Source of the DNA: Methanomassiliicoccales archaeon
Lineage (GTDB): Archaea; Thermoplasmatota; Thermoplasmata; Methanomassiliicoccales; Methanomethylophilaceae
Length of the DNA stretch: 36,806 nt
Reading direction: 5' to 3'
NCBI GenBank assembly: GCA_900767505.1
Contig: CAAFZG010000061.1
Coordinates: 1-36,806 of the forward strand
Shown: positions 3,837 through 36,806 of the stretch, piece by piece
How the letters are laid out: each line of letters opens with the position of its first letter
Position numbering within the stretch: the stretch's first letter is position 1
Position numbers and translations under genes: made by a program
Notes under the pieces: model-generated
What the model was told of the DNA's origin: nothing
Databases searched by the model: none
The model's input: only the letters and a program-made list of their open reading frames with translations

Positions 3837-4133
3837 TTACGGGTCTTCGTTATCGAGATCGATCATCTTCGAAACGAAGAATATGGAACCGTCCTCGGAA
3901 AAGGATCCGTTCAATCCATAATATCCGAGATGAACCGGTTCCGTATATGAGAAACATTTCTGATGGATTCCGGAACTGGTCTGCAGGAGAAACATGAAAC
4001 CGGAGGACGTCTGATCGATGTCATAGACTATGCCCGTGCAATCGAAAGAGTCCTCATCAGAGAACGTGACGAATATCGCTGCGACGACCACTATACAGAC
4101 TGCTATTGTGACATATCCGTGAGAATTCCTCAT
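3837..4133 (-). CDS. Hypothetical membrane-anchored protein (98 aa)
   Basis: N-terminal hydrophobic helix followed by a short beta-rich domain; co-oriented upstream of tiaS. Confidence 0.65.
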   Translation of the reverse strand: MRNSHGYVTIAVCIVVVAAIFVTFSDEDSFDCTGIVYDIDQTSSGFMFLLQTSSGIHQKCFSYTEPVHLGYYGLNGSFSEDGSIFFVSKMIDLDNEDP

Positions 4134-4191: not shown

Positions 4192-4220
4192 CCCCCCCCA
4201 CCCCTCCATTTCCACTGCAA
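4192..4220 (-). promoter_or_regulatory. Origin recognition box (ORB) with G-string
   Basis: Minus strand TTGCAGTGGAAATGGAGGGGTGGGGGGGG; 24 bp identical to the inverted copy at 5953-5976; resembles the archaeal ORB consensus. Confidence 0.9.
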
Positions 4221-4247
4221 AAAGAAAATGGTATGTGTGTTCGAAAA

Positions 4248-4328
4248 TCAGCTTCCGAGAACGTAGAGAACGCCGATAAAAGCGATGATTCCGAGAACAC
4301 AAGCTCCGATTACAAGCCAACCTTTCAT
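4248..4328 (-). CDS. 26-aa single-TM micro-protein MKGWLVIGACVLGIIAFIGVLYVLGS
   Basis: ATG..TGA ORF, GGAGTG SD 7 nt upstream, TTTTATAA box at 4371-4378(-); codons (ATC, GGA, CTC, TAC) resemble the highly expressed atp genes. Confidence 0.7.
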   Translation of the reverse strand: MKGWLVIGACVLGIIAFIGVLYVLGS

Positions 4329-4688
4329 TATTAGACACTCCAGTGAAATTGAAACTGTATTTACATCGACTTATAAAAGCTACTGATACGAGCGAAAGTC
4401 AGGAAAGGGAACGATCTCAATTTCGATTAATTGCAGAAGAAGGGTGGAAACAATAGGATGAAGAAGATTTAAACGTCATCCTACCAATGAAATTGTTGAA
4501 TGTTCAGACAATCGAAATTTTTGATGAATATATTTACAACCAAACTTCTGGTTGTAAATTTTCCACCCTTTATCTACAATTGAAAAATATTCATCGGAAG
4601 AAAAATGATAGTACAATTTTTATAACAAAAATATTCATAGAGTGGAAATGAGGGTGGAAAAAATAATTTCCACTGCAGAGGTTCAATA

Positions 4689-5924
4689 ATGACTGAGGCC
4701 AATATTTTCACACAATACGTCAAAAAAAGAAATGTGATTGTGAAAAACAAAAAGATATTGCAGTCAACATACATTCCTGAATATCTGCCTCATAGAACCG
4801 AGAAGATCAATGAGATCGTGGAAATCATTGCTCCTGCATTAACCAAAGATAAACCATCTAATATTCTCATCTTTGGAAAAACCGGTACCGGAAAAACAGC
4901 TGTCATGAATTTTGTCGGCAGAGAATTGAAGAAAGCTGATGCCGAAAAACACAATTGTGATTTTATCTATGTCAACTGTGAGGTTGTGGACACCACATAT
5001 GGAATGCTCTACAACATTTCCAATCAGATAATAACCGATCCTGCGAAAAGAGTACCTTTCACAGGATGGGGTTTGGATAAGATCCTTGCCGAACTGACAA
5101 GTTACATTGAAAAAGAAGATAAGATCTTCATAATCGTTCTGGATGAGATCGATCGTGCGTTCCAGAAGAATGGTGATGATATCTTCTATTATCTGACAAC
5201 TATCAATGAGGTTCTTCAGAATTCCAAAGTCTCGATTATCGGAATCACAAACAATGTCAATTTCACAGAACTGCTCGGACAAAGAGTAAAAAGCAGACTC
5301 GGTGAAGAGAAGATCGTTTTCCCTCCTTACAATGTCGAACAGCTTCAGGATATTCTCTATGCAAGAGCGAAAGAAGCATTCGATGACGGAATCCTCGATG
5401 ATGATGTGATCCCATACTGTGCAGCTCTTTCCGCACAGGAGATGGGAGATGCGAGAAGGGCTTTGGATCTTCTCAGATTGGCAGCCGATTTCGCTGAAAG
5501 GAATGGAGATGCACATATTACCGGAGCACATGTCCGTTATGCGAAGAACAAGATCGAATTGGATGCGGTTTCTGAAGTTGTGAAGACACTTACCATTCAA
5601 TCCAAGATCGTTCTGATGAGTATCATCCGTAACACCGAGAAGGATATGATAGTCATGACAACAGGTGAAGTGTATTCAACTTACAAGTTCATCTGCGAAG
5701 TCATAGGACAGTCCGTTCTGACTCAAAGAAGGGTTGCCGGTCTTATCTCGGAATTGGATATGCTCGGTATAATCCATGCAAGGATCAAATCATTCGGTAA
5801 AGCAGGACGTACAAAGGAGATCGAACTGAGTACTCCCAAAGAGATCATCAATCTCATCAAAAACGATGAATTGTTCTCAAATCCTGATATCTATAAGAGT
5901 AAAAATCAAACAACACTGATCTGA
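4689..5924 (+). CDS. cdc6: Orc1/Cdc6 replication initiator
   Basis: Walker A GKTGTGKT, Walker B IIVLDEID, GDARRALDLL, C-terminal winged helix (TTGEVY...ELDMLG...GRT). Confidence 0.97.
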   Translation: MTEANIFTQYVKKRNVIVKNKKILQSTYIPEYLPHRTEKINEIVEIIAPALTKDKPSNILIFGKTGTGKTAVMNFVGRELKKADAEKHNCDFIYVNCEVVDTTYGMLYNISNQIITDPAKRVPFTGWGLDKILAELTSYIEKEDKIFIIVLDEIDRAFQKNGDDIFYYLTTINEVLQNSKVSIIGITNNVNFTELLGQRVKSRLGEEKIVFPPYNVEQLQDILYARAKEAFDDGILDDDVIPYCAALSAQEMGDARRALDLLRLAADFAERNGDAHITGAHVRYAKNKIELDAVSEVVKTLTIQSKIVLMSIIRNTEKDMIVMTTGEVYSTYKFICEVIGQSVLTQRRVAGLISELDMLGIIHARIKSFGKAGRTKEIELSTPKEIINLIKNDELFSNPDIYKSKNQTTLI

Positions 5925-5948: not shown

Positions 5949-5976
5949 GTTCCAGTGGAAATGGAGGGGTGGGGGG
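5949..5976 (+). promoter_or_regulatory. Origin recognition box (ORB) downstream of cdc6
   Basis: GTTCCAGTGGAAATGGAGGGGTGGGGGG, canonical ORB core plus G-string. Confidence 0.9.
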
Positions 5977-5977
5977 C

Positions 5978-6805
5978 TTACCTCTCACACCTTTCCATGT
6001 TTTCCATTTTTTTAGATGCATTTTTCTGATTTTTGTACAGAGAAACAGCATCGAAGACCAACAGAAGCATGAATATCGAGATGAACGACATTATCAGCGA
6101 AGGTATGCTGTTCTCGACATATTTTAGATTGGAACTTCCGTTTATGAACAGTTTTATGCAACCTATCCAGGGAATCTCGAATATCGCAATGGATCTGATG
6201 TCTTCGATTCCTATGGGATGGTCAATAATTCCGACCGTTTGATCGAAGTACGTATTGGAAACGGCATTGTCTCCCATCGTCAGATAGCCGCTCTTCTTGT
6301 TGGTGATGCTGTCGAGATCGATCTTCACGGTTTTTTTAGAAATCGTTATATCCTTCAGTGTCAGGGTTCCTTTGAGATCGTACCAATTGTTCCCGTTATC
6401 GGATTTCCATTCCCCTTTGTAACCCTGAAGTTGCGGAGCACTCCAAGTTCCCGTTTCCGGGTCGTAATCTAACCACAGTATAGCGCGATGGATAACAGGA
6501 TTCTTGTTCTCGCCGCGCTCGTAGATTATTACCGATCCGTAATCTCCGAATGATGAATATCCATCTTGTGTGCCTTCGACATAGCTGTGAATCTTGGTTT
6601 TCGAAGGATCCTGAACGATGACCATATCCCCTGTATCTATGCAGCCCAGTTCTGATTGTGTCTGGTTGTGCTGCATGCTCTGGGACGTGACGACACTGAA
6701 CGGTGAACTGAATCCGGTGTATGCTACCAGTCCTGCGTAGCCTCCGATGAGAATGACTGCGATTGCAGCTAAGGCCATGTAGAATCTGCGGTCGGATCTG
6801 TTCAC
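5978..6805 (-). CDS. Signal peptidase I (S26/Sec11 type)
   Basis: N-terminal TM, VVTSQSM catalytic Ser, GD, PVIHR, TMGDN, C-terminal TM. Confidence 0.88.
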   Translation of the reverse strand: MNRSDRRFYMALAAIAVILIGGYAGLVAYTGFSSPFSVVTSQSMQHNQTQSELGCIDTGDMVIVQDPSKTKIHSYVEGTQDGYSSFGDYGSVIIYERGENKNPVIHRAILWLDYDPETGTWSAPQLQGYKGEWKSDNGNNWYDLKGTLTLKDITISKKTVKIDLDSITNKKSGYLTMGDNAVSNTYFDQTVGIIDHPIGIEDIRSIAIFEIPWIGCIKLFINGSSNLKYVENSIPSLIMSFISIFMLLLVFDAVSLYKNQKNASKKMENMERCER

Positions 6806-16562: not shown

Positions 16563-17999
16563 TCATTCCTCATGGAAGTTATGCATCCTGATCTGACCGT
16601 TCCCAAGGTCCACGACCGGCATGATTCCGGGGTCGGGATTGAAGTTGTGCTGCTTCTGATACTCGGTCTGCGACTGCCAGGTGGATGCGTTGATCATTCT
16701 GACGCCGTTGTAGATCTCCTGACCTGCTCCGTGAACGTGTCCCGAAACGAAGATGTCGGGGATGTATTCCATGACGAGATAGTCTTTCTTCTCCGGCGCA
16801 AGCGCATTCCTCTGTCCGTAGATCGGTGCCAAGTGGCGTCTCACGCACATCTGCTTCATGACGCTCAGGGGATTCTCGTAAGTCAGATTCTGGACAGATG
16901 CGATCCAATCATCCATGCTCTTGCCGTGATATGTCATCACTGTCCTTCCCTCAACGTTCAGGTACACGGGATTGCTGACCATCAGGATGTTGGAATCGAA
17001 GTACTTGGTGAATTTGGGATTCAGAGCAGGCTGAGGTTCGGCAGGACGTGCGGCATCGTGGTTACCCGGGTGGACAACGATCTTGATGTGGTCCGGAATC
17101 TCCTTCAGATATTCGGCCAACTGCTCGTACTGGAGGTTTATGTCCTTGATGTTGAGCTCCTTGTCCTGATCGGGGAACACGCCGATGCCGTCCACGACAT
17201 CTCCAGGGAATACGATGTAGTTGATCCCCTGCTCGACGGAATTGGCCTTCAGCCAGGAGATCATCTTGTGCCAATCCGATTCAAGGAATGTCGAGCTTCC
17301 GACATGGACGTCGGAAAGGAATGCGATCTTCGATGTCGAGTCGCTCGGTTCCCATGTGTGCTGTCTGGGGATATCCGGGCGGAAGATCTTCTCCGGGATG
17401 ATCATCGTCTTCTGAAGGTTCGGTTTTCCGAGGACACCGATGACTTCGTCGTTGACGAACAGTTCCGAGTTCAGCGGGGAGTCTTTGGATATGAACACCT
17501 TTGTGGTCCCCGTATCATCTTCAATCGTGACCATTGTGTGGCCGTTCTTCGTGGTGCTGCAGTCGTAGACGAGTCCTGCGATCTTCACGTCGCGGTCAAG
17601 GGTCATGGCCCTAGAGATGTCCATGGCCTTTCCGAAGTCATGGCGCTTCTCCAGCAATCTCTTCAGACTGAGGAAACGGCTCCTGAAGAATGCGGCGAAG
17701 TCGTTGATCTTCCCCTCGCAGGTGGACTCTCCCGTGATATCTGTGCCTTTCATCACCGATATGTCGGGCGTGAACCTGTTGTCCGGTCTGATGGATTTCG
17801 ATGATTCGAATATGATCTTGTCGCCCGCGATGCAATCCATGATGTCCTGTTTGTTGACGAACATCATGTTCGAGGCAAGATGAGAGAACACGGTGTTGGT
17901 GAAACCCATCGGGTCGTTGTTGGAGAGGATCATCTCGATGGCGTCTGGTGAAAAGAAAATCTTCTTCTTCGCCGCTGCGGACAGGATCTCCTCTCTCAT
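16563..17999 (-). CDS. polB: DNA polymerase D small subunit DP1 (proofreading exonuclease)
   Basis: OB fold plus calcineurin-like motifs SDVHVGS, GDVVDG, PGNHD, YHG, RRHLAP, GHVH, TWQ.QT. Confidence 0.96.
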   Translation of the reverse strand: MREEILSAAAKKKIFFSPDAIEMILSNNDPMGFTNTVFSHLASNMMFVNKQDIMDCIAGDKIIFESSKSIRPDNRFTPDISVMKGTDITGESTCEGKINDFAAFFRSRFLSLKRLLEKRHDFGKAMDISRAMTLDRDVKIAGLVYDCSTTKNGHTMVTIEDDTGTTKVFISKDSPLNSELFVNDEVIGVLGKPNLQKTMIIPEKIFRPDIPRQHTWEPSDSTSKIAFLSDVHVGSSTFLESDWHKMISWLKANSVEQGINYIVFPGDVVDGIGVFPDQDKELNIKDINLQYEQLAEYLKEIPDHIKIVVHPGNHDAARPAEPQPALNPKFTKYFDSNILMVSNPVYLNVEGRTVMTYHGKSMDDWIASVQNLTYENPLSVMKQMCVRRHLAPIYGQRNALAPEKKDYLVMEYIPDIFVSGHVHGAGQEIYNGVRMINASTWQSQTEYQKQHNFNPDPGIMPVVDLGNGQIRMHNFHEE

Positions 18000-28117: not shown

Positions 28118-29050
28118 TCAAAGCTGGATCTCGATTCCCAGTTTCTCCGTCAGTTCCTTGTAGCGGTTCCTGATGGTGACCTCTGTCACTCCGGCGACGT
28201 CGGCTACTTCCCTCTGTGTCCTGCGCTCGTTGCAGAGGATCGAGGAGATGTAGATGGCGGCGGCAGCGACGCCGGTAGGTCCCCTTCCGGATGTCAGCTC
28301 CTTCTCGGAGGCATCCTTGAGGATCTCGGCGGCCTTGCTCTGGACCTCTCCGTTGAGCTTGAGCTCGGAGCAGAACCTCTGGACATAGTCCTGGGGCTTC
28401 GTGGGCATGAGCTTCAGTTTCAGCTCGCGGGTCATGAACCTGTAGGTCCTTCCGATCTCCTTTCTTCCGACACGGCTGGATCCGGCGACCTCGTCAAGGG
28501 TCCTGGGCACTCCGCACTGCCTGCATGCGGCATACAGCGATGCGGCGACGACGCCCTCGATGGACCTTCCCCTGATCAGGTTCTTGTTGACGGCTTTCCT
28601 GTAGATCATGGCGGCGGTCTCCCTGACGTTCCTCGGCAGACCCATGGCAGATGCCATCCTGTCGAGTTCGGACAGGGCGAACGCAAGGTTCCTCTCGGTA
28701 GCATTCGAGACACGGATCCTTCTCTGCCATTTCCTTAATCTGTACAGCTGGGCGCGGTTCCTGGTGGGGATGCTCTTCCCATAGCTGTCTTTGTTCTTCC
28801 ACGAGATCTCGGTAGAGAGACCTTTGTCGTGGATAGTGTAGGTCATCGGAGCACCTGTACGGGCGCGTTTTTCGCCCTGCTCCACATCGAATGCCCTCCA
28901 TTCGGGACCTTGGTCGATAAACTGGTCATCCAGGACCAGTCCGCAGTCCTCGCATAACAATTCGCCGCGCTCGTAGTCGCGGACAAGATGGTGGCTTCCA
29001 CACTCGGGACAGACCTCAATTTCTTCTGTTCCTTCTCTTACCTTTGGCAT
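28118..29050 (-). CDS. tfb: Transcription initiation factor IIB
   Basis: CPECG...CEDCG zinc ribbon, GPEWRAF, two cyclin repeats, [14 protein letters not shown]. Confidence 0.98.
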
Positions 29051-29294
29051 TCTGCTTGTTCCCCCTGAAAAACACTTCCATTCCAATCCTCACGCCGGCG
29101 TCTTCGGGTTTGACCGAAGCGTAGGGATTGTCGACAGGACCGAAGACCCTGCCTACCGTTCCAAGGCGTTTTTCATTTTTCGAATACACGGTCGAACCGA
29201 TGTCTGGGAGTTCCGAACAGCAGATGATCAGTCTGCCGTCACACGTGATCTCTTCTATTGTACCGAGAATTTCCATGAACCGTGTTCGCTCCAT
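29016..29294 (-). CDS. gar1: H/ACA RNP subunit Gar1
   Basis: LG.V..VFGPV..PY..VK motif; conserved gar1-tfb linkage; start 29294 or 29276. Confidence 0.88.
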
Positions 29295-35519: not shown

Positions 35520-36806
35520 GGACTGTGTGTCATAAGTCCGCCATCACCTCCTGCCGATTGATGACCTCTAGACGTTCGTCTAATTCGCAATGTTCGTCAA
35601 CAAACCTCAGGATGTAGCCGCGGCGGATGTTGTAGAGGGTGTACCTGATCGTCATCGATATCGCCATCATCCTGAACAGACGGTCCTTCACACGCTCCCC
35701 GTACAGCTTCTTGATGACGGAGAAGAATGATTCCACGAGCCACCTCATGTTGTACCCGCTGATCCTGTGATGGCGCTCCTTCCCCAAGGCCTCCTCTATC
35801 ATCCTCAATGCGTGTCTGGTCACCAGATCCTTGTCATCTTTGAACTTCTCCTTGAGATTCGGATTGAAATCCAGGTCGACCTCCTCGATCAGCATCCAGT
35901 TGGCGACGGTGTCGTAGGCACCGTCGGCCAGAAGCCTCACCAGGCATACGCCCATCTTCAGTGTGCCTCTGACGATCGCCGGCATGACCCGGGCATCGCC
36001 CGGGGCTTCCGGCGTTATGGAGAACGAGACGACCTTCTGTGTCCGGACATCGAGGAGGACATGCTGTTTGATGAAGTTCCTCTTGTTGAGCGACCAGACC
36101 AGCTCGATGTAGATCCCGCTGCCCTTCGTTCCCACTCCCGAGCCGTCCAGGGCGCATTCCGCCTCCTTCCCGATATACTCCTTGTTCACCTTGACGGCCA
36201 TCGATCTGTGTATCTCCGCCGCCTTGGCATCCTTCTCGGCTTGTTCCAAGACATCGGCTTCGCATACGGGGATCTTCTGAGGCGCCGAATACTCCGGACA
36301 GATTTCGGAATCCAGGAACATGGTCGGATCGAAATCCCCTCTTCTTCCGCCGAGAAGCCTTTCGGCCTCCATCATGATCTCCATGCCCTTCCCGCCGGGT
36401 CCGAAGAACCGGTCCTTGTTGCGTTGGATCGTCTTGTATGACGGCATCGGCAGGTTCAATGCCGACAGGGTGGCTTTCATATCTCCGACGATCTCGCGAT
36501 AGCTCTGGTCCTTGGCCTCCTTCTGCATGGTCAGGAACAGTATGGTGGACGGGGGATATTCGAAGGGCCTTCCCGGTTTGTTCCTGTTGATCAGCTCCAG
36601 TTCGAGGATGCAATGCTCGAGATCGACCCATGCCGACAGATCCTCCTGAAACAGTATGACGGCCTTATCGTACAACCCCCAGTATCCGCTACGGGAATCG
36701 TACCTATTCCCGTAGATGTCGTGTCCTTGTTGCGTCTGGCCTGTGCGTTCGTATTAACTACTTCTGAGGCTATCTTCGATTCGGAAGTCATGCTATCTTG
36801 GCTCCA
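35520..36806 (-). mobile_element. IS5-family insertion sequence (other end outside the window)
   Basis: DDE transposase; candidate terminal repeat GGACTGTGTGTCATAAG (35520-35536) overlaps the transposase stop and is preceded by TTAA. Confidence 0.7.
35530..36675 (-). CDS. IS5-family DDE transposase, possibly frameshifted at the 5' end
   Basis: K.GRPF.YP, SYR, P.Y.TI, ALDGSG, ADGAYD, Y..R..VES.FS.IK; the frame stays open about 26 codons upstream of TTG 36675 without an ATG. Confidence 0.85.
   Translation of the reverse strand: MYDKAVILFQEDLSAWVDLEHCILELELINRNKPGRPFEYPPSTILFLTMQKEAKDQSYREIVGDMKATLSALNLPMPSYKTIQRNKDRFFGPGGKGMEIMMEAERLLGGRRGDFDPTMFLDSEICPEYSAPQKIPVCEADVLEQAEKDAKAAEIHRSMAVKVNKEYIGKEAECALDGSGVGTKGSGIYIELVWSLNKRNFIKQHVLLDVRTQKVVSFSITPEAPGDARVMPAIVRGTLKMGVCLVRLLADGAYDTVANWMLIEEVDLDFNPNLKEKFKDDKDLVTRHALRMIEEALGKERHHRISGYNMRWLVESFFSVIKKLYGERVKDRLFRMMAISMTIRYTLYNIRRGYILRFVDEHCELDERLEVINRQEVMADL

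Follow-up and report, generated by a model that had tools for sequence, protein, structure and literature searches.

We analyzed a 36,806-nucleotide contig (the window) from a Methanomassiliicoccales archaeon, whose assembly amounts to 1.23 Mb and is 79% complete. Around the initiator gene orc1/cdc6.1 (cdc6 from here on), the window contains the following features:

3837-4133, minus strand: 98-aa protein with an N-terminal membrane anchor, outside the ORB pair, conserved in the order and without a family match
about 4192-4221, minus strand: left full ORB, with its G-string directed away from cdc6, fitting the consensus in Table 2 of PMC4153887
4219-4228, minus strand: U-rich tract running into the left ORB, a candidate terminator
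4248-4328, minus strand: small ORF of 26 aa, ATG to TGA, with a single predicted transmembrane helix, N terminus inside
4336-4341, minus strand: Shine-Dalgarno (SD) site GGAGTG
4371-4378, minus strand: TATA box TTTTATAA
4441, 4560 and 4651: exact AGGGTGGAAA boxes, candidate Orc1 sites (0.05 expected by chance)
4460-4688: AT-rich divergent spacer, GC 0.26-0.34, a candidate unwinding element
4668-4678: ORB half-site within the spacer
4689-5924, plus strand: orc1/cdc6.1 initiator gene (NF001625 above the cut-off), divergent from the small ORF
about 5949-5976, plus strand: second full ORB, on the right, just past cdc6 and inverted relative to the left one
5978-6805, minus strand: S26 signal-peptidase-like protein, outside the ORB pair, with a weak TIGR02228 match

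Separated by 1713 nt, the two full ORBs make up an inverted pair of 35 nt, which encloses the small ORF and cdc6. The left one lies 27 nt beyond the stop codon of the small ORF; the right one had been omitted from the sequence-only reading of this DNA that we followed up. No other full match to the ORB pattern was found in the 1.23-Mb, 79%-complete assembly. An inverted ORB pair adjoining orc1/cdc6, with AT-rich DNA between, is present with an unusually wide spacing, and we refer to the region as a predicted origin. Neither the GC skew within the window nor a scan for bacterial promoters and terminators was informative. To the left of the pair lie the 98-aa anchored protein, tiaS and a thiolase gene; to the right, the S26-like peptidase, whose Ser-Met and His-Arg motifs are kept in relatives, a dCMP deaminase and the A-ATPase operon. 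The 98-aa protein has a small, beta-rich-looking domain and adjoins tiaS throughout the order. The window also holds the ordinary neighbours DNA polymerase D small subunit (16563-17999), TFB (28118-29086) and, at the contig end, a DDE transposase (35530-36675). Borrel et al. (2014; PMC4153887) predicted, as a prediction only, an oriC at orc1/cdc6.1 with the same ORB consensus, the same initiator and a nearby A1A0 ATPase operon. The part of that article covered here mentions no small ORF, whereas in the loci that we analyzed inverted ORBs 1.5-1.75 kb apart enclose both cdc6 and a small gene.

The ORF, its TTTTATAA TATA box and its GGAGTG SD site were confirmed where the sequence-only reading had placed them. 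Among the ATG-started ORFs of 20-40 aa in the 1.23-Mb assembly, this ORF alone passes a combined filter of hydrophobicity, SD site and TATA box. It is intact in 20/20 same-genus cdc6 loci having upstream sequence (21 loci in all), and no such ORF was seen upstream of cdc6 in nine loci from other families, one of them with just 65 nt upstream. A family profile built from 42 sequences and run over 250 genomes of the order matched (E < 0.001) in 127 of the 153 genomes from 14 genera of Methanomethylophilaceae, a family of gut methanogens. Many of the 26 genomes missed by the profile gave no cdc6.1 match either, so the contig was probably unassembled in these. The remaining genomes gave weak matches only (E 0.006-0.03), in 1/10 other genomes of the family and 2/87 of other families. 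In a class-wide draw, the profile matched 23 of the 24 genomes of the family and none of 176 genomes from the class's other families.

We then compared 69 loci from distinct genomes, 67 of which carry an intact ORF of 25-37 aa. An SD-like word is present in 65/69, and a TATA-like word lies 40-63 nt before the start in 63/69. The two exceptions are L077, with no standard start codon although a good SD site precedes, and L091, in which the second half is altered, the frame changes midway and runs to 64 aa, and no ORB lies behind. Without these two, the codon model (IQ-TREE MG+F3X4, 24 codons in 66 unique sequences) gave an omega of 0.14, and same-genus pairs, counted with correction, one of 0.17; both values indicate purifying selection. 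Differences by codon position follow the same pattern, with 0.63 at the third position versus 0.35 and 0.27 at the others. One could argue that what is conserved here is an origin element at the DNA or RNA level, open only by chance, as the two aberrant copies among the 69 loci might suggest. This is extremely unlikely in view of the codon-position pattern, the low omega and the conservation of SD site, start and stop at a fixed length; besides, Rfam gives no match at E up to 1. On these sequence grounds, the small ORF is a genuine protein-coding gene. Profile matches, conserved signals, omega and a structure model all strongly support the earlier proposal of a real single-helix micro-protein gene between ORBs.

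The claim that the gene is unannotated is mostly true, although 3 of 10 looked-up family members had already been called as proteins, with cluster names that read 'hypothetical protein' or an automatic membrane-protein label. The window's own micro-protein is absent from the protein collection searched. Among 1.84 billion representatives we obtained 31 matches, each of 28-62 aa, none fused and all plainly of the micro-protein family. Pfam, NCBIfam, the PDB sequences and the ESM Atlas gave no usable match, with very short queries such as these having low power, and of 50 pattern matches in viral contigs none was confirmed as the micro-protein. Regarding codon usage, which had been said to resemble that of the highly expressed atp genes, the small ORF does shift from the genome average towards the A-ATPase operon, with a log-ratio of 0.26 that exceeds 99% of 584 long ORFs and was reached in 0/10000 draws under genome usage. 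However, usage taken from cdc6 shifts equally (null means of 0.084 and 0.094 for cdc6 and atp usage, treated as the same shift), so the local AT bias confounds the claim. The CAI is also ordinary: 0.57, near the genome median of 0.54 and below the 0.77 of ahaA/B.

The predicted product is compact. AlphaFold2, run on a 30-aa member, models a single helix with a pLDDT of 90, and the best 17-residue hydropathy of 2.9 fits a helix long enough to cross the membrane. The first eight residues are net positive in 65/69 loci and the last eight neutral in 59/69, a charge pattern that favours a topology with the N terminus inside and the C terminus outside; in the usual short form, about three residues would then face the cytoplasm. 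Positions 3, 7, 10, 14, 17 and 21 belong to the least variable ones and share one face of the helix (G3-I7-C10-I14-F17-L21 in the window's ORF), which suggests helix-helix packing. In G141, the same slot is occupied by a longer version of 61-62 aa (the long form), whose N terminus is extended by a lysine-rich stretch of 35 residues, and close relatives of it are found among ten database matches (P0036-P0045). The extension carries 9-12 K/R within its 35 residues, is predicted to form a basic cytoplasmic helix and could bind nucleic acid. At L151:103-288, the long form is apparently read from a leaderless or short-leader transcript. Both forms align with a probability of 94%, and further divergent forms may have been missed, since the short-form profile overlooks the long one. 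Several known classes were considered and rejected. A stand-in for Sec61beta/SecG is not supported, given that PF03911 does not match and that a separate Sec61beta gene is present in 5/5 genomes. A class III (pilin) signal peptide was rejected because Trp at +1 departs from the motif of such peptides and no pilin domain follows. The similarity to the anchor of the 98-aa neighbour, which might suggest a duplicate, is that of a generic helix only.

Cdc6 is divergent from the small ORF in 67/67 loci with cdc6 in view, at 116-361 nt, and in the remaining two of the 69 the ORF lies at the end of a single-contig record with cdc6 starting at the record's beginning. The GC content of the divergent spacer varies from 0.22 to 0.51 among loci. 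Past the stop codon, an ORB follows after 5-212 nt in 65/69 loci, with a median of about 30 nt; on the other side, the cdc6 end lies 4-240 nt from its ORB. Homologues away from the origin, named beforehand as the observation that would count against an origin link, are nearly absent: in loci found by the peptide pattern only, a set overlapping the 69, a divergent cdc6 lay within 500 nt in 55 of 57. Of the other two, one has an inserted AAA ATPase gene in between, and one has an IS110 transposase and rps3Ae on the upstream side. A U-rich tract stands ahead of the ORB on the small-gene side in 44/60 loci and ahead of the other ORB in 39/60 (9 of the 69 loci were left out, with no ORB seen or under 15 nt). 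Because it also precedes the other ORB, the tract may act as a terminator, belong to the ORB unit, or do both. A complete archaeal tiaS-ORB-cdc6 locus also occurs in eight records titled as bacteria (L179, L183, L186, L190, L192, L195, L196 and L197), whose titles are probably wrong.

The block bounded by the ORBs, with the small ORF and cdc6 inside, is inverted relative to its flanks in L069, L152, L153, L154, L159 and L231, which span at least three genera, as expected for origin-centred inversions or recombination between ORBs. These inversions partly explain the tight linkage of small ORF and ORB, a link that also survives the loss or shuffling of other neighbours (L083, L156). Insertions occur as well. 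An AAA ATPase gene (404 aa, AAA_14/DUF4143, L187:1066-2280) lies between the small ORF and cdc6 in a 1.4-kb insertion; in L165, an IS110 transposase (L165:1237-2421) and rps3Ae, not cdc6, lie upstream of the small ORF, in what may be a misjoin; elsewhere, a PCC-domain gene or other membrane-anchored genes are found in the interval of the ORBs or in the spacer ahead of cdc6. Finally, two reduced genomes of 0.7-0.8 Mb (G137 and G132) keep cdc6 and the ORB next to it but carry no ORF between the two. These genomes are related and count as one event (79% complete, 6% contamination). Searches of both for the small protein, the anchor protein, the S26-like peptidase and TIGR02228 found no match, and incompleteness may explain the absence of the peptidase. 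G137 keeps Sec61beta, and its second ORB is degenerate (viewed in this genome only).

To place the origin of the gene, we built a cdc6 tree from 46 chosen rows by a quick method, in which one branch with an SH-aLRT of 100 splits ORF-positive from ORF-negative genomes. The usual order outside the ORF-positive branch is tiaS, anchor protein, DUF3198, ORB, hflX and cdc6. In the sister genera, hflX sits in the same slot and direction as the small ORF and a second ORB is already found behind cdc6. HflX, a widespread ribosome GTPase, is ORB-adjacent upstream of cdc6 in basal genera (L119:7000-8397, L116, L114 and L115). It was detected in 6/120 family genomes, all from ORF-negative genera (one query, E 1e-20). 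PF11433 (DUF3198) is found in 0/153 genomes of ORF-positive genera versus 81/97 others, and an order-specific profile run on 120 genomes gave full-strength matches only in 6 genomes of four ORF-negative genera. Taken together, the tree, the gene order and the counts of absences lead us to conclude that the small gene took the slot of hflX on the branch where hflX and DUF3198 vanish, and they indicate a single gain in the ancestor of crown Methanomethylophilaceae. That the gene arose from a duplicated ORB, which can read MKGW, was rejected as unsupported, several genera beginning differently.

In the examined loci across the order, DUF3198 genes lie a few kb from cdc6 and often end at the ORB (L112:2488-2829 and orthologues); a search of the literature for the term returned no paper. 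Like the small gene, DUF3198 is a membrane-protein gene ending at the same ORB, and its second helix aligns ungapped with the micro-protein, sharing the GW-x14-G-x2-W spacing and ranking first of 13 membrane helices tested. Together with the mutual exclusion of the two genes, this could mean that the micro-protein is a cut-down replacement of DUF3198 and that a membrane function beside the origin is old and continuous. We find this quite unlikely. A single branch is a single event, and hflX is excluded alike, in the same genera; the hhalign probability for the second helix is 18-27%, nearly equalled by the 14-15% of the anchor of the 98-aa protein used as a control, and the long form fails to align (1%). 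Moreover, the genes lie on opposite strands and on opposite sides of the ORB. DUF3198 proteins differ in having about 115 aa, two helices and a soluble tail; none of the 42 micro-protein members matches the soluble C-terminal domain of PF11433, and the similarity stays below any homology threshold. A broader version seems improbable as well: DUF3198 in most of the order, then a helix of 26-30 residues, would be the dedicated membrane-protein gene kept at the origin box, the micro-protein or its membrane-bound mRNA would, via a partner, link the origin with the membrane or its growth, and the lysine-rich long form would re-supply a cytoplasmic arm that binds nucleic acid.

We favour, as somewhat the more probable reading, that the gene encodes an accessory helix of the membrane that is lodged in the origin, rather than a tether of the origin. 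Following a single gain in the ancestor of crown Methanomethylophilaceae, a gene that is probably monocistronic and expressed would supply a single-pass helix of 25-37 residues, which would leave the ribosome and enter the membrane after translation. There, its conserved face would pack on a membrane protein or on its own copies, making it an accessory subunit or modulator with, presumably, no core role in initiation. The gene would stand at the origin because it filled the divergent slot beside cdc6 that was formerly that of hflX and because inheritance keeps the ORB-bounded segment together as one block. The reduced genomes support this reading, having lost the ORF in place plus both flanking membrane-protein genes and kept cdc6 and the ORB. 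Counting against it are the very tight ORB link, surviving neighbour shuffling and inversion, which a functional link would also give, and the long form of one lineage, if its lysine-rich extension does bind nucleic acid.

Among known systems, the closest in form are bacterial small single-pass proteins such as E. coli YohP, which share the length, the single helix and the transcription unit of their own (PMC7549839, PMC12542507). YohP, of 27 residues, is described as inserting post-translationally (PMC7549839), and the micro-protein would probably share this route. They differ in that there is no sequence relation (1/42 members touches PF25659, at E 0.69) and that the micro-protein is archaeal and fixed at the origin. 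By position, the comparison is with oapABC (arvABC) of Haloferax volcanii, which are likewise conserved next to an archaeal origin and were at first suspected of acting in replication; they form a GTPase operon of unrelated sequence, unlike the gene described here. As reported in PMC10927574, the origin-linked OapA protein of Haloferax was shown to be a driver of vesicle formation, an analogy that advises caution against inferring function from position.

The sequence-only reading had proposed that oriC could be tethered to the membrane by the gene or its product, whether by coupling transcription and translation to insertion or by way of Orc1. Its placement of a gene between ORBs stood, and that position, held in nearly all cases, speaks for a tether, as do the basic cytoplasmic helix of the long form and the account in PMC7549839 that yohP mRNA reaches the E. 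coli membrane without translation, which would open an RNA-based route. The tether itself we consider improbable. According to PMC7549839, the SRP engages nascent chains at about 40-45 residues, of which 30-35 are hidden in the tunnel, a bacterial figure that would probably extend to archaea; the chain here is shorter than the tunnel, and the example of YohP inserting after translation leaves co-transcriptional insertion unsupported. With almost nothing in the cytoplasm, the micro-protein would hardly be able to contact Orc1 or DNA. An ORB-like site is found within 60 nt of the small-ORF start in just 9/67 loci, and control of the small-gene promoter by Orc1 was rejected, as no ORB-like site is conserved there. 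Furthermore, the rest of the order and the two reduced genomes keep the cdc6-ORB locus without the ORF, and L165, if not misjoined, has the ORF without cdc6 upstream; the interval is also open to genes unrelated to this one.

It is also conceivable, though unlikely, that the transcription unit rather than the protein serves the origin, with two promoters firing outward from the AT-rich spacer towards both ORBs. Such transcription might underwind the spacer or position loaded MCM; any short gene would suffice, the protein being selected separately, and the idea can hold together with an accessory helix lodged in the origin. Transcription of mioC and gidA at the oriC of E. coli is a precedent. 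On either side of the gain, the slot holds a gene in the same direction (hflX, then the small ORF), both units stop just inside an ORB, and MCM is described as loading between opposing ORBs (PMC6742236). Against it stand the slot without an ORF in the reduced genomes, the wide variation of the spacer in length and GC, and the 1.4-kb insertion that is tolerated. Transcription into the ORB, which the sequence-only reading had put forward, is doubtful because a U-rich tract precedes it.

According to these results, the Methanomassiliicoccales lineage that dominates in the gut gains a near-universal, mostly uncalled gene in its core genome; the gene belongs to an undescribed family of small membrane proteins whose position inside a predicted archaeal origin is fixed. 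We found no description of this ORF in the literature searched; subscription papers lay outside the search, and Figure 2 or the supplements of PMC4153887 might show it. Rather than an empty spacer, the predicted origin of these archaea forms an invertible block, about 1.6 kb long, in which genes stand between the ORBs. An origin-encoded membrane link, if true, would have no described counterpart in archaea in the literature searched. The locus allows one to ask separately whether the protein, its transcription or neither affects initiation. Were the protein to play a part there, it would constitute a minimal link between an archaeal origin and the membrane; otherwise, the gene would define a new family of small proteins.
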